Position numbers and translations under genes: made by a program. Of a stretch of 64,000 nucleotides of DNA, positions 2,292-57,181 are shown piece after piece. Position 1 is the stretch's first letter, and each line of letters starts with the position of its first letter. Origin of the DNA: Eledone cirrhosa (taxonomy: Eukaryota). The DNA lies in NCBI GenBank assembly GCA_964016885.1, contig OZ024757.1:34162001-34226000 (forward strand), in the 5' to 3' direction. The notes under the pieces were generated by a model that did no database searches, had not been told where the DNA came from, and was given only the letters and a program-made list of their open reading frames with translations.

Positions 2292-2515
2292 CAGAAATTC
2301 CTGATGGAGAATCAAAGCACTTGTCAACATTTTTTATTCCTCATAAATTGTTTCATCCGATTAAAGCAATGCCATGTGTGCTCACAGAATAGAATTAAAT
2401 TCGATCTGTATATATCCATAGATATGCCCCAATTTAGAATCCTCAGAGGATGAAACAATTTGTAAGGCATTAAAAATGTTGATAAGTGCTTTTGATTCTC
2501 CATCATAAATTTCTG
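2292..2515. mobile_element. Inverted-repeat element with degenerate hammerhead-like motifs (family G), inside a (TA)n-flanked insert
   Basis: Arms 2292-2358 and 2448-2515. The right arm has GAAA-caatttg-TA; the minus strand has CTGAGGA at 2440-2446. Confidence 0.55.
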
Positions 2516-2684
2516 AGAAGTGCGCTGGCGCACAGAAGTGACTGGAAGAAGGAAATAAAGAAAGGCGATGTACAAGACAAGTTTACACACACACACATCT
2601 TCTGCCTCATCAGCTCTCAAACCAGAAAAATGGTTTCGCATGATTTAATTGAAAGTATATATATATATATGTATATGTGTGTGT

Positions 2685-2850
2685 GAAACCCGTGTTCAAT
2701 CGGGGGTAACCACAGTTAGTAAAGTACTCAATACTTTAGTAGAGTGTAAACATCAAATTTGATATAGAAATGGCTTCTACAAGCCCTGATGATTTCTTTT
2801 AAATGAAGCAGTTCTAGTCCTGAAGAAGCTATTAATATATTAAACATGAT
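2685..2850. mobile_element. Family F palindromic element (putative PLE pLTR derivative)
   Basis: gcttctaca..CTGATGA(2786)..GAAG cagttctagtcctgaagaagc. Tail homologous to 54537-54605. Lies between (TG)n and (TA)n. Confidence 0.65.
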
Positions 2851-2877
2851 ATATATACATACATATATATATATATA

Positions 2878-3015
2878 TAACGAAGTGTGGTAAGGAACCA
2901 GATGGACCATAACGCACCAGAGTACTCAATACTTAGGGTAATAGAGTGGGTAATAGGAAAATGTTTAACCCCGACGGCAGAGCTCAACCCGTTTCGACGG
3001 CTATTTCTGAACTAA
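2878..3015 (-). mobile_element. Family J element (GC-rich hairpin plus GAGTAC tail)
   Basis: Near-identical reverse complement of parts of 5682-5846 and 10209-10364. Abuts (TA)n. Confidence 0.75.
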
Positions 3016-4879
3016 ATTAGAATTTTTAGTGTGGTAATAAATAACCGAACTTTTCAAGCGATAATTCCTTATATGGGAAGATTGTAGTTGTCAAATCCAG
3101 GAATAAGTGTGTGAAGTTTGGTGCAGATGTTAAAGAGCCCCTTTTTTAACAAAGCTGTGATACATATTTCAATGGCAAGTGTTGCTATGTGATTGTTCAA
3201 TCATATGACCAGTCATGCAATATCATTGGACAGTATCCTATGTAATAAAGTTACATTTCCATGGCAATCGAATCTAAAGAAAAGCGAATGGACAAAATTA
3301 TGTTTTCATAGACAAAGATTTCACAAGGGAATGGACTTCTGCTAATGAAACATCATTTCTGTTGATACAACAAAAGATTTTGAAATATTTTTCAAAAAGA
3401 ATTTTCTTTTCAAAAATTCTACAATATATTAACAAAAAGAACTTTTGAATCTGAAATATATTTTGTTCTCTATTTAAGAAGAACTTAAAATAAAAGCCAA
3501 CTCTATGAAATAGCCATTTTTGATTAAAGAAAGAAAAACCCTTTATTGTTTTGTTTTGTTTTGTTATTGTTGTTATTGTTGTTGTTGTTGTTGTTGTTGT
3601 GGTGGTGGAGGTGGTGGTGGTGGTGGTGGTGGTAGTGGTTGATATTGTAATGGGGGTGGGGTGTTGGTGGTGTTGTTATTTGTGGTGGTGGTGATCGTGG
3701 TGTGTGTGTTGATGGTAGTTGTGGTAGTGGTGGTGCGTGTTGACGATGGTGATTTTGGTGGTGTTGGTGGGTGGGGTTTTTTTGTGGCCCCAAAACTAAC
3801 ACTTTACAGAATGTACAGGGTGTATTTTTTCATGACACTAACAATAACACTTTATAGAGTGTGCTGGGTGTAATTTTTCATGACACCAACACTAAAACTT
3901 TACAGAGTGTTCTGGGTACATTTTATTGTTGCACCAACACTAGACAATTTGTTACATACTCATGCAGACCAAAGTCCTCTCAAACCATATGCTGTCTCTA
4001 TTTAATTGTTAACCCCGTAGCAACTAGCCTCTCACTACATTTACTTATAGTGTCACTGTGCTTGTAGAGGAAAGTGGTTCTTTTGTATTATAACAGCACA
4101 AATATATTTACTAATCAAACAAGATTGATAAGAGTGGTAAAGTATGAACCCTTATCCAGGGTAAACACGATAAAAATCCTTGAGAAGATCAAAACAAATA
4201 TGAATCATAATGATTGTCTTGTCTAATAAATGGGCCTGTCACCAGGTTTTGTTCCTCAGGGGCAGGCGAGTGAGATGAGGTGGTGTTGGTGGGGGGGACA
4301 TGCAGAATATTCTAAGACTCTTTCGCAAGTAAATCTTTTATGAACTCCATTTTTGAAATTATTCAAAATTATGGCTGCCGTGCCATCCAGTGGGTCCCCC
4401 TCACCTTACTCATTTGGCACTGGGCCTGCTTATAAATATGCCATGGTATGATCTACTGAATCACACACACACACAAACATTCTTCACTCTGATTGAGCAA
4501 CAAGATTCCAGACTTCATTCGCTTGCCGAGTGGAGTTGACCTCATCAAATACGACCAAGGAAACAATGTTTCTATTGGTCTTTCCATTGCTGATACTATC
4601 ACCATCAATCTGTTGCTGATAGGAAGGGCACCAAGCTGCACTTCATATCTGTTGGGGTCGGAGGGGATCGAGTGGGGTTGGATGGGGTCGGGTAGAGTTG
4701 TGTGGGGTCGGGTGGGTTCGGGTGGGATCGAGTGGAGTTGGGTGGGATCGGTTAGAGTTGTGTGCAGTCGGGTGGGATTAAGTGGGGTCGGGTGGGGTCA
4801 GTGGGGTGGTGCAGAAGGTCAATGGTAATGCTGGTGGTTGCAGTCATGGTAGTAAGAGTTAGAGCATTGTGCAGATGTT

Positions 4880-5300
4880 GATGTTGTTGTTATTGTTGTT
4901 GTTGTTATTGTTGTTGTTGTTGTTGACATTGTTGGTGTTTTATTATTGTTGGTGTTTTTGTTGTTGTTGGTGTTGCTGCTCTTGCTGCTGCTGCTGCTGC
5001 TGCTGCTGTTGTTGTTGTTGTTGTTGTTGTTGTTGTTGTTGTTGTTGTTGTTGTTGTTGTTGTTGTTGTTGTTGTTGTTGTTGTTGTTGTTGTTGTTGTT
5101 GTTGTTGTTGTTGTTGTTGTTGTTGTTGTTGTTGTTGTTGTTGTTGTTGTTGTTGTTGTTGTTGTTGCTGCTGCTGCTGCTGCTGCTGCTGCTATGCTGC
5201 TGCTGCTGCTATTGCTGTTGTTGCTGTCGTTGATGATGTTGCTGTTTCTGTTGTTGTTGCTATTGTTGTTGTTGTTATTGTTGTTGTTGTTACTGCTGCT
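4880..5300. repeat. (TTG)n/(CTG)n trinucleotide microsatellite
   Basis: Direct observation. Confidence 0.95.
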
Positions 5301-55126: not shown

Positions 55127-55590
55127 GGTGGCTGCAAACTCTCATAAAAGTATTGCAATCGCTTGTCAGATTCAGATGTGTGATGCTCGGATATGGCTTT
55201 CCAGGCCTGCTAGAGACTTGCACTTCTTCTCACATTGACGACAACTATGAATCTCCCTGGCCTCAGGTCTTGCATCAGGTTGCCTGTGAACCTTCACAAA
55301 GCTGTGGAGATCATAGTTCACTGGTTCTCTTTGAACATGGCTGCGACTGTGGCTCCTGAGACCAGATTTGCTCAAGCAAATTTTTCCACACTCAAAGCAC
55401 TTCAATTCAATGGAGACACCGATTATTTTGAGAGATACACCAGGGCATTGCTTTTGCACATCCCGTTTGATCTTCTTAGGCTCTATGCGTCTGTCCTCAA
55501 AATTATGGACCCCATCATTCACCATTCCATGCCAAGTTTCTCTTTCAAGAGCCCTCTATCTCCCAGTCAGCCACCATCAAACCAGTTTGA
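55127..55590 (-). pseudogene. RTE/BovB-like LINE C-terminal remnant with two C2H2 zinc fingers
   Basis: MVNDGVHNFEDRR...CFECGKICLSKSGLRSHSRSH...CRQCEKKCKSLAGLESHIRASH. Confidence 0.75.
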
Positions 55591-56340
55591 TGCATATATA
55601 TATATATATATATATATATATATTCACACATACGATAGGCTTATCCAGTTTCCATTTATCAAATTTCACTCGCAAGACATTAACCAACCTGAGGTTATAG
55701 TAGAAGACACTTGCTCGAGGTGTCACACAGTCGTACTGAACCTAGAACCATTAGATTGTAACCACACAGCCATGTCAACACCTAATACTCGACATTTATT
55801 TATTTAAAAAAAATATATTATCATATTATCAGCCCTATCTCCTCTTCCTTTGACATTTGTTCCACCCATCCTCACCCCCACATCTTTCATCCTACTCAGT
55901 TCTAATTGATTTCTCTACATAAGACCCCCCACTGGCTGTCTAATGTTGTATTGATTTTTTTTGGGGGGGTCATTAATTTTGTTAAATTCAATCAGCTTTA
56001 TCATCATCATAATCACCATCATCATCATTTGACATCTGTTCTCCCTACTAGCAAGATTTGAACAGAATTTATCATCATCATCATTGTTTTTACATTGTTT
56101 TTTTTTTTTTTCTGTGGTAGCATGGGTTGGAATTGACCTTTTTGAGGCAATGTTTTACAGTTAGATTCCCTTCCTGAAACCAAGCCTTTCGGTTGCTTCT
56201 TATGAGATGTAGGAATATGTTGTATCTATTCGAAACTGGATGCAAATGCATACACACACAGACACACTTGTGTATGTATATATATATGTATATATATATG
56301 TATATATATATATATATATATATATATATATATATATATA

Positions 56341-56540
56341 GTAGTTCCAGAACAGTTAATTCACCATTTCCAAGAACAATATGTTTCACCTAGGACGGAT
56401 CATCAGCTCGGTATAAAAATGGTGAAACATATTGATCTCGGAAATGGTGAATTAATTGTTGTGGAACCACTTCTACCAAACTCGTCCCATGGACTGAGTG
56501 CTCTACCACTACGGATATAGCCCACCAGTGTTCTACTAAT
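56341..56540. mobile_element. Family E palindromic hammerhead element
   Basis: Arms 56341-56390 and 56421-56470, tail with TGAGTGCT, (TA)n on both sides. Confidence 0.75.
56370..56411 (-). ncRNA. Minimal type I hammerhead ribozyme, family E
   Basis: Minus strand ccgag-CTGATGA-tccgtcctaggt-GAAA-catattg-TT-cttgg. 5-bp stem I, stem III ACA/TGT. Confidence 0.7.
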
Positions 56541-56899
56541 ATATATATATATATATATATATATATATATGCGGGTGATGCGTTGTTTCCTTGAGCAAGG
56601 CACTTTATTTCACATTGCTCCAGTTTACTCAGCTGTAGAAATGAGATGATAGGGACTGGGGTCCATATCATTCCGCTGCAAAGCGGTCGTGGAGGTGGCA
56701 CGGCAAAAAATCACCCAGCCCACACTGTAAAGTGGACGTGTAGGCGCCACGGTAAAAAAAGCACCCAGCACTCACTGTAAATGAGGTTGGTGTTAGGAAG
56801 GGCATCCAGCTGTAGAAATCAAGCCAGAATCAGTTCCCATCCCACCCTTGCAAGCAGGGAAAAGTGGACGTAAAATGATGATGATGATGTGTGTGTGTT

Positions 56900-57075
56900 A
56901 GGTAATTCCGAAGAAAAAGCAAAGGAAAAAAGAGTGCTCTATGTATAGAACAGAGCTATTTAATTAGAAAGTGAACAACACAATATATAACTACTCCATT
57001 ACCAAAGGTTTCAGGATCCCAGACAATATTAATATACGCCTGGAGTTATATATTGTGTTGTTCACTTTCTAATTA
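56900..57075. mobile_element. Palindromic element with decayed hammerhead-like loop (family I)
   Basis: Arms taattagaaagtgaacaacacaatatataact / agttatatattgtgttgttcactttctaatta. The loop on the minus strand reads CTGGGA-tcct-GAAA-cctttgg-TA. Confidence 0.5.
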
Positions 57076-57114
57076 TATATATATATATATATATATATAT
57101 ATATATATATTATA

Positions 57115-57181
57115 AAAAGTTGGGACCTGACGGCTGAGCTCTGGAACTAGCTGTTGAAACAGCAAGAACTCAGCCGTCAGG
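57115..57181 (+). mobile_element. Truncated family J hairpin
   Basis: ctgacggctgag...ctcagccgtcag, immediately after (TA)n. Confidence 0.55.

Follow-up and report, generated by a model that had tools for sequence, protein, structure and literature searches.

Hammerhead-bearing fold-back units in Eledone cirrhosa as probable 5′-truncated ends of Penelope-like elements

We analysed a 64,000-nt window of the Eledone cirrhosa genome (assembly GCA_964016885.1, contig OZ024757.1, positions 34,162,001–34,226,000, forward strand) against a comparison set of 1.9 Mb of genomic loci holding copies of the window's repeat families. A strict scan for type I hammerheads (stem I ≥4, stems II and III ≥2) recovered six motifs, with cores at 9341(+), 25579(+), 54992(+), 54852(−), 17976(−) and 14167(−), whereas dinucleotide-shuffled controls (100 shuffled globally, 100 locally) averaged 0.05 and never exceeded 1. 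A relaxed scan admitting U·U at 10.1/11.1 and a U3–A8 core, criteria chosen after the families were already known, recovered eight, compared with 0.37 (maximum 3) in 60 shuffles. Hammerhead motifs are therefore present above chance, as an earlier note on this DNA had proposed. Seven of the eight full motifs listed there were recovered by the relaxed scan. The eighth, 45760(−), failed both scans; its core is present and its stem III palindromic, with a stem I of only ~2 bp. The motif near 27700, which had been called degenerate, proved complete under the relaxed scan (27651–27701, −; 6-bp stem I). On sequence grounds, the window motifs are minimal type I hammerheads of the kind found in Penelope-like elements (PLEs).

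The units carrying these motifs were assigned to families A to H. Family A forms a fold-back within (TA)n at 54659–55097, a Hydra-clade PLE 3′ end composed of an inverted arm with tail (54659–54929; hammerhead 54800–54860, −) and a direct arm (54930–55097; hammerhead 54984–55044, +). Subfamily A2 contributes a fold-back at 9042–9449 (inverted arm plus tail to 9263, with a damaged hammerhead; direct arm with a complete one, 9333–9397, +) and another at 14069–14362 (complete inverted-arm hammerhead, 14111–14175, −; direct arm internally deleted and followed by the tail). Family E, likewise a fold-back in (TA)n and a Hydra-clade PLE 3′ end, occupies 56340–56537, with a hammerhead at 56370–56411(−) and a right-hand tail. 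Family F fold-backs lie at 2689–2847 (inverted arm plus tail, 2689–2783; direct arm from the core, 2785–2847; stems II and I damaged), 27581–27745 (the complete hammerhead in the arm bearing the tail) and 54446–54601 (cut within stem II, with the 5′ core gone and a right-hand tail). Family G, absent from the earlier note, has five window copies: a single arm with tail at 2864–3095(−), a Hydra-clade PLE 3′ end whose U3–A8 hammerhead has a decayed stem I; fold-backs at 5679–5856 (cut within stem II/III) and 10209–10378, both with right-hand tails; a diverged G-like fold-back at 37480–37655 with the tail motif described below; and a short G-like one at 57120–57181. The family H fold-back (56895–57072) is cut below the core and has a left-hand tail with the motif; one other copy (L202/L203) keeps the core.

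The remaining families depart from this build. Family B is a single arm without tail at 25546–25686(+), with a hammerhead at 25575–25632, and is the 3′ end of a 1.95-kb PLE-type element lacking open reading frames (ORFs). Family D (45670–46363, −) is the 5′-truncated 3′ end of a Neptune-type PLE, also a single arm, with a hammerhead-like core at 45791(−) and a weak stem I. Family C (17785–18270, −) is an old retrozyme-like unit of ~300 nt with a hammerhead at 17940–17980(−), ATGCAAAT ~80 nt upstream and inverted pieces. The description 'mostly palindromic' thus fits the A, E, F, G and H units and not the single arms of B and D. The claim of many unrelated families was overstated for the eight listed motifs, which fall into five families because four of them (9333+, 14111−, 54800− and 54984+) belong to A or A2. 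Among the supposedly degenerate motifs, the one near 2786 belongs to family F and that near 57010 to family H, a real family. The units around 2440 (2292–2515, a 72% palindrome with CTGAGGA) and 36275 (36216–36448, an inverted repeat with CTGAAGA at 36282, −) had no second copy in the 1.9 Mb of genomic loci.

Rfam returned no hammerhead among the best 150 of 258 window rows, nor at the gathering score in eight reference loci, and the active hammerhead shape was not seen in predicted monomer folds. None of 55 listed polymorphic columns of families A, B, E and F (CpG-prone columns excluded) was an invariant core base; one was the free N7. Having lost the 5′ half of their core, most copies cannot be ribozymes.

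Ladders of 5′-truncated copies lead upstream to decayed Hydra-clade PLE ORFs in families A, E and G and to a Neptune-type ORF in family D. Family A copies have a common 3′ end and reach beyond the query on its 5′ side by 22 to >1,499 nt, with 6 of 30 reaching the locus edge; the long ones contain pieces of reverse transcriptase (RT) and GIY-YIG endonuclease with DKT, CxCx5C, CxxC and CxH, and RWR near the start, as in Hydra-1_Crog (the E and G reads stop short of both DKT and RWR). For family E, 10 of 30 loci picked by pattern have sense Hydra-type matches upstream, with the CxCx5C linker, CxxC and CxH (the first C decayed in copies read). For family G such matches occur in 7 of 29 oriented loci and in L344; they cover only the thumb and endonuclease part and show these cysteine motifs, with one C replaced by a stop in L344. 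A candidate G parent with an ordinary CUGANGA core was rejected (52 scattered and 9 unrelated matches), the actual core being U3–A8. In all three families, RT and then C-terminal GIY-YIG, with no CCHH motif, precede the pLTR in broken ORFs, and a pLTR hammerhead and (TA)n target are present. On these motifs, together with by-eye comparison with published proteins, A, E and G are assigned to the Hydra clade of PLEs; Pfam did not recognize the Hydra-type pieces. The family D parent ORF was found in 3 of 30 loci (Pfam RVT_1, 3 × 10−8); L342 and L343 have a Cx2-5CxxC linker and a CCHH-type endonuclease (GIY-YIG Pfam E value 0.012, below the cut-off), and by these motifs D is probably Neptune-type, with Nematis a possible alternative. 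Every parent copy read was broken, with no intact ORF among them. The PLE link suggested earlier was thus right, and attachment to (decayed or broken) RT and GIY-YIG ORFs was found for A, E, G and D and not for B, F, C or H. One apparent tandem element (L027/L028) proved to be a 6.5-kb duplication.

Copy ends were associated with TA tracts, bearing out the microsatellite link noted before: among the 374 ends of family copies in the genomic loci, 288 had (TA)4 within the next 20 nt, compared with 4–8% of random positions, and no target-site duplication (TSD) could be distinguished inside the TA flanks. Each family has two fixed 3′ ends, and 5′ ends cluster at hairpins. The earlier picture of a very large population of solo inverted pLTRs was nearly right as to inverted pLTR ends, except that the copies are primary truncated insertions. 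Solo pLTRs are described in rotifers (Arkhipova et al. 2013, PMC3846280), but an origin of the Eledone units through recombination or deletion within full-length elements is most improbable: truncation ladders that run without a gap from fixed 3′ ends, and head-to-head arms, are products of insertion, and recombination between direct pLTRs gives neither.

The arms themselves bear on how fold-backs arise. Junctions were distinct in all 16 pairs of A, all 16 of B, 34 of 36 of E, 53 of 89 of F and 31 of 50 of G, so that copies lack the one common junction expected of an independent element. At subfamily sites, the two arms of a copy mismatched less than arms of different copies (within versus between: A, 0.12 and 0.32; B, 0.13 and 0.29; E, 0.13 and 0.45; F, 0.09 and 0.47), on which ground the idea of two arms from unrelated RNAs was rejected; later gene conversion could also produce the likeness. 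Across pairs, the tail was on one arm in 191, on neither in 7 and on 'both' in 9; all nine of the last are 5′ pLTRs of full-length copies with the leader continuing into the body, leaving one tailed arm in 191 of 198 short two-arm copies. Variable centres, shared subfamily alleles and a tail on one arm together indicate fold-backs made anew at insertion. The tail arm was the shorter in 110 pairs versus 43, a skew given no weight because several query sets had been chosen by means of window copies with just this form.

By contrast, non-autonomous fold-back ribozyme elements transcribed and moved as palindromes should share their centres, and some do: F centres recur in 12, 11 and 8 of 89 pairs and G centres in 11 and 9 of 50 (partly because the queries were window copies of that shape), by-eye inspection of the first 100 matches listed gave 20 (F) and 21 (G) exact head-to-head pairs within 100 nt, and F has no ORF parent. 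Yet the majority of centres are unique, the commonest unbiased F centre has its tail on either side, the two arms of a copy agree in subfamily allele in several subfamilies alike, and A, E, G and D have ORF parents. We therefore regard mobile palindromes as very improbable overall and largely refuted for A, B and E; the window motifs represent no new class of fold-back element. The label 'non-autonomous' holds for B, and probably for F and C, but their mobile unit would be the linear RNA and not the palindrome. Rather, the units are very probably heavily 5′-truncated 3′ ends (a hammerhead pLTR with optional tail) of TA-targeting PLEs, with the fold-back likely built at each insertion when reverse transcription starts from either side of the target break, using RNA of a single source as template.

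How the inverted arm is made is less certain. Under the scheme that we moderately favour, the GIY-YIG endonuclease would cut a (TA)n tract on both strands. Of the resulting DNA ends, one would prime at a near start site and the other at a far one, and the stretch between these sites would be the tail. Both cDNAs would stall at hammerhead stem II or at a hairpin just above it and then be joined head to head, in many cases at a short palindrome. Alternatively, and rather unlikely in our estimate, a single cDNA (or antisense template) could fold back at a palindrome and prime its own extension, giving the inverted arm of a PLE copy; head-to-head junctions in rotifers were explained in this way (PMC3846280). 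The preference of centres for short palindromes and hairpins and the single source of both arms agree with this. Self-priming alone, however, is silent on outer ends at two different fixed sites, each abutting (TA)n, and on 11 pairs that combine a tail-only inverted piece with a non-overlapping arm. Two-sided priming has a biochemical parallel in PAc, a Poseidon PLE of Anolis: in Frangieh et al. (2024, PMC11167929), the purified protein cuts and extends both strands of an AT-rich target, and two internal RNA start sites bound the tail. The analogy is limited by the PAc tail, which is much shorter, and by PAc start sites unlike the target, whereas the Eledone ends fall at TA-like points of the element; the rule of one tail per insertion is likewise not stated in the parts of that paper drawn on here. 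That source and Craig et al. (2021, PMC8557442) treat the PLE insertion step as an open question.

Families without coding parents raise the question of trans-mobilization. Family B is an ORF-less pLTR–body–pLTR unit (hammerhead spacing 1,920 and 1,948 nt), collinear as a whole in 16 of 30 loci at 83–93% identity, with no frame >170 codons, a best tblastn E value of 0.96 and nothing useful from Pfam on its longest frame. Family F is ~440 nt long, with one fixed 5′ stop, at a TA tract, in all 30 long loci (29 independent). Exact single-motif matches number at least 33,624 for F and 62,608 for G. The sequencing runs listed with family F included no RNA source. As a tandem or circular monomer, F was rejected (no tail-to-5′ junctions), and 30 of 39 F tails without TA after them, when read, had no common continuation. 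Family C includes one dimer with a 299-nt spacing (L553), most copies being monomers, and in 6 of 36 loci a downstream piece is repeated 169–190 nt upstream; the snRNA-type promoter of newt satellite 2 is one possible model for its octamer. No parents were found for C, F or H. Protein-coding PLE parents are identified for four families (A, E, G and D), and three (B, F and C), in which no gene was found, likely borrow such enzymes; taken singly, B is probably a non-autonomous PLE-type element using PLE enzymes in trans, and for F and C we judge such use an even call. It is possible, but on balance doubtful, that B and F are both remnants, B being a deleted or decayed coding PLE and F the terminal part of a coding parent in which synthesis always jumps off at a TA tract within it. 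The F boundary is a TA tract, L505 and L508 show head-to-head 5′ ends across TA, the tail-to-5′ tandem junction had no matches and the protein panel comprised only 15 fragments; against this stand the collinearity and frame content of B and the 30 long F loci, which have nothing in common above the tract.

Primary sequence is not wholly unshared among families, as had been claimed: six have a short tail motif, GAG-Y-R-C-Y, also present in published Hydra consensi, and its occurrence there and here is possibly a new observation. Window-wide it was mildly enriched (16 compared with a mean of 8.0 and a maximum of 16 in 100 shuffles). The 'unique tail' is the PLE tail, placed between hammerhead and ATG in full-length A (loci L232, L234, L238, L247, L248 and L253 among the matches listed). 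We tentatively propose, as a conjecture that may well prove wrong, that Hydra-clade PLEs insert by two-site twin priming of one RNA and dock on this motif, conserved from corals to Eledone; that motif and hammerhead suffice for transport; and that the ~440-nt family F, with its tens of thousands of copies, and the 1.95-kb family B are PLE-driven, SINE-like parasites. If the motif is a protein docking site, an in vitro system for the Hydra clade could be built directly on it, with B and F as minimal trans substrates.

The truncated-PLE, head-to-head pLTR and tail features all have precedent (Cervera 2014, Arkhipova 2013, Craig 2021, Frangieh 2024). Hydra-clade PLEs, including Hydra-1_Obim of Octopus bimaculoides, resemble A, E and G (PMC8557442): C-terminal GIY-YIG, DKT, CxCx5C linker, RWK-like motif, CxxC and CxH, canonical hammerhead, (TA)n target, and an inverted 5′-truncated copy with a one-sided tail. 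As given there, however, tails are 30–40 nt (60–140 nt here; A is ~3.1 kb), the clade table has no U3–A8 core such as that of G, the listed Hydra-1_Obim hammerhead differs by eye from those in the window, and the Eledone families include tens of thousands of ultra-short copies. Minimal PLE hammerheads (Cervera and de la Peña 2014, PMC4209133) likewise number thousands per genome in many families, with a palindromic loop III, an extra base after A9, a U3–A8 variant and opposite-strand pairs 100–700 bp apart that were read as truncated PLEs; F and G differ in stems III of 4–6 bp and in single-family numbers at least tenfold higher. Rotifer Penelope elements (PMC3846280) show head-to-head inverted pLTRs with palindromic junctions and an optional tail on one, and pLTRs moving unrelated DNA in trans; unlike the Eledone units, they are low in copy number, have TSDs and are explained by self-priming. 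Metazoan non-LTR retrozymes (PMC7229834; bioRxiv 10.64898/2026.07.22.740005) and non-autonomous Chlamys such as MRC1 are also hammerhead units without ORFs, and a dependence on PLEs has been proposed for them. Family C resembles them in its 290–300-nt period but also has inverted arms; B (1.95 kb, dispersed) and F (no tandem junction) differ from them. With the claimed new class removed, what is gained is an unusually large natural record of PLE insertion, which points to a pair of fixed start sites, each used by one end of the target, and to a single source for both arms. For annotators, such palindromes may easily be misfiled as MITEs or miRNA hairpins.

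The hammerhead motifs in the window are real: a strict scan for type I hammerheads recovered 6 motifs (0.05 in shuffled sequence), and a relaxed scan, with criteria set once the families had already been seen, recovered 8 (0.37 in shuffles). Seven of the motifs listed in the earlier note were among these; the one at 45760 lacked a proper stem I, and 27651-27701 (minus strand), previously called degenerate, was one of the eight. The eight motifs represent five repeat families, with four motifs belonging to family A or its subfamily A2, while fold-backs (head-to-head inverted arm pairs) of families F, G and H occur throughout the window, mostly without a core. 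Two further CTGANGA...GAAA stretches failed both scans: 11700-11800 (minus strand), in an old repeat present in 12 loci, and 5860-5975 (plus strand), unique among the loci fetched from the genome. The assembly containing the window is a 3.0 Gb, microsatellite-rich animal genome; minimal hammerheads number thousands per genome, and opposite-strand pairs 100-700 bp apart have been interpreted as truncated Penelope-like elements (PLEs), according to the available passages of Cervera 2014 (PMC4209133). The new class of fold-back ribozyme element proposed earlier was not borne out; instead, the units are truncated, inverted PLE ends, chiefly of the Hydra clade and very dense, an origin of a known kind. 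Of continuing interest are a one-tail rule, two ORF-less families (B and F) and a common tail motif.

The family A units are ends of a Hydra-clade PLE. One arm retrieved 30 loci that shared a 3' end and differed on their left sides, and upstream sequence retrieved 30 that formed a truncation ladder, the shortest reaching 22 nt and the longest more than 1,499 nt. The 10-kb stretches around eight long copies held a broken ORF of ~3 kb with an RT core, DKT, a CxCx5C linker, GIY-YIG, CxxC and CxH. These ORF motifs, (TA)n targeting and canonical hammerheads are among the Hydra-clade marks in the available text of Craig 2021 (PMC8557442, section 11), the supplement of which lists Hydra-1_Obim of Octopus bimaculoides; compared by eye, family A and the published proteins seen there are alike. 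Full-length copies read hammerhead, tail, ATG in at least six loci, and in L348 the ATG lies 237 nt below the hammerhead with RWR in its frame, so what had been described as a unique tail is, in this family, the leader behind the PLE terminal repeat (pLTR).

Coding sequence was also found near three other families. Family E (174 exact matches in a pattern search, 0 for the control) had Hydra-type coding sequence upstream in 10 of 30 loci, as did family G in 7 of 29 oriented loci (30 less one unoriented) and in L344. The G core was UUGANAA, a U3-A8 variant, in 27 of the 29, and a single G 19-mer is present 62,608 times; this variant and low in vitro cleavage are both on record in passages of PMC4209133. 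Family D copies form a truncation ladder; 3 of the 30 loci carry RT, a Cx4CxxC linker and a CCHH-type GIY-YIG, which suggests a Neptune-like parent. A large multi-copy segmental repeat (L173-L179; G000:C1 143.3-143.8 Mb) contains family E together with a second piece of Hydra-type endonuclease.

Five families each had two fixed 3' ends, near and far, at 103 and 192 nt from the first core base in A, 107 and 248 in B, 69 and 131 in E, 65 and 126 in F, and 104 and 182 in G; (TA)4 followed 288 of the 374 termini that did not run on into the element. Among 207 head-to-head pairs, counted where both ends fell at one of the two sites and pairs ending elsewhere were dropped, 191 joined one near and one far end, so that one arm carried the tail between these sites; 7 used the near site twice and 9 the far site twice, all nine being 5' pLTRs of full-length copies and hence not termini. 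Under looser pair rules, 107 of 127 pairs had a tail on one arm, 20 had no tail and none had two. Centres were distinct in 16 of 16 pairs for A, 16 of 16 for B, 34 of 36 for E, 53 of 89 for F and 31 of 50 for G, with recurrence in F and G inflated by the choice of query; their repeated centres lay at short palindromes, and one F centre occurred with the tail on either side. Mismatch at subfamily sites was 9-13% between arms of one copy versus 29-47% between copies.

In Frangieh 2024 (PMC11167929, in the part available), a PLE protein in purified form cut and extended both strands; it started at two internal sites of the RNA, one on each side of the tail, and had no need of hammerhead cleavage. 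We infer that each target end is primed at one of the two sites on RNA from a single source, that both cDNAs stall at stem II or an upstream hairpin, and that the stalled cDNAs are then joined. Self-priming, discussed as a fold-back origin in passages of Arkhipova 2013 (PMC3846280), remains the main rival to such two-site priming.

Family B shares the anatomy and truncation ladder of the other families. Its full unit spans 1.92-1.95 kb from hammerhead to hammerhead and aligned collinearly as a single block in 16 of the 30 loci; the longest stop-free frames in it ran to 57-170 codons, and its best match to 15 PLE fragments had an E value of 0.96. The sole B locus with PLE-fragment matches (L514) has them beyond a broken-off B copy. 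The F hammerhead is complete (stem I 6 bp, stem III 4 bp), with genome counts of 3,306 for a 33-letter pattern and 33,624 for a 20-mer. Most F copies end at most 15 nt from the core; all 30 long loci (29 independent) break off at a TA tract lying ~315 nt above it and had no common sequence beyond that tract, and a search for a tandem F junction found none. Short non-autonomous Penelope elements are described for butterflies (PMC6685494, in part), and 31 recently active PLE families for Octopus vulgaris (PMC13282606, in part). Family C is old (72-86% identity), with a 290-300 nt period in 7 of 36 loci; the window copy contains inverted pieces, as do several other copies. Most C copies carry an ATGCAAAT octamer ~80-90 nt upstream of the core (17994-18001 region in the window), which may be an snRNA-type promoter element by analogy with newt satellite 2. 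One further copy of H bears the core.

A short motif, GAG-Y-R-C-Y, follows the near end at a distance of 15-61 nt in families A, B, E, F and G; the H tail has it too, and D lacks it. It was chosen after the fact, and its window-wide enrichment is mild; 10 of 16 window matches to a stricter form fall in these tails. A and B share another short stretch directly past the far end. In the published sequences available, inspected by eye, Hydra-2_Amil and Hydra-2_Ajap have the GAG-Y-R-C-Y motif at their ends, Hydra-1_Ajap has it at its start, and Hydra-1_Crog carries a variant; it was not visible in the short end of Hydra-1_Obim. The available PLE passages do not mention it, and open literature outside Repbase, Dfam and closed journals yielded nothing on the motif, PLE twin priming or these families (related work: bioRxiv 10.64898/2026.07.22.740005, PMC7229834 and PMC6962438, each in part).

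Just outside the window, a further fold-back family bordered by TA occurs in L038 (~4380-4650; minus-strand positions 3380-3730) and the upstream flank of L495; its core is CTGATGA, and it carries the GAG-Y-R-C-Y tail motif. Several PLE families, with A2, F and G adjoining, are stacked in one TA tract in L374, L378, L087, L256 and window 54446-55097, because each insertion leaves TA flanks that serve again as targets. GIY-YIG pieces in L339 (3461-4303), L341 (4811-5320), L076 (335-835), L074 (3083-3604) and L069 (1465-1983) come from five or more additional PLE families, so the families traced understate PLE diversity here. A tRNA match at 23725-23782 (31.2 bits; gathering 29) and very common dispersed repeats of 130-200 nt (12013-12220, 15512-16040, 33153-33297, 39093-39395, 44292-44495 and 46804-46989) are probably SINEs; one such repeat (35860-35935) matches 102 fetched loci. 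Tandem arrays lie at 30774-31228 (112 nt unit), 37699-38124 (104 nt), 45057-45613 (40 nt) and 47262-47882 (48 nt), and the units of 112 and 48 nt look like ends of a common LINE or SINE. A short frame at 63031-63142 with a YKVDLGHEGQCWTIYRRYKHFRSLHEQL-like end resembles a PX-domain exon, and the window may be intronic.
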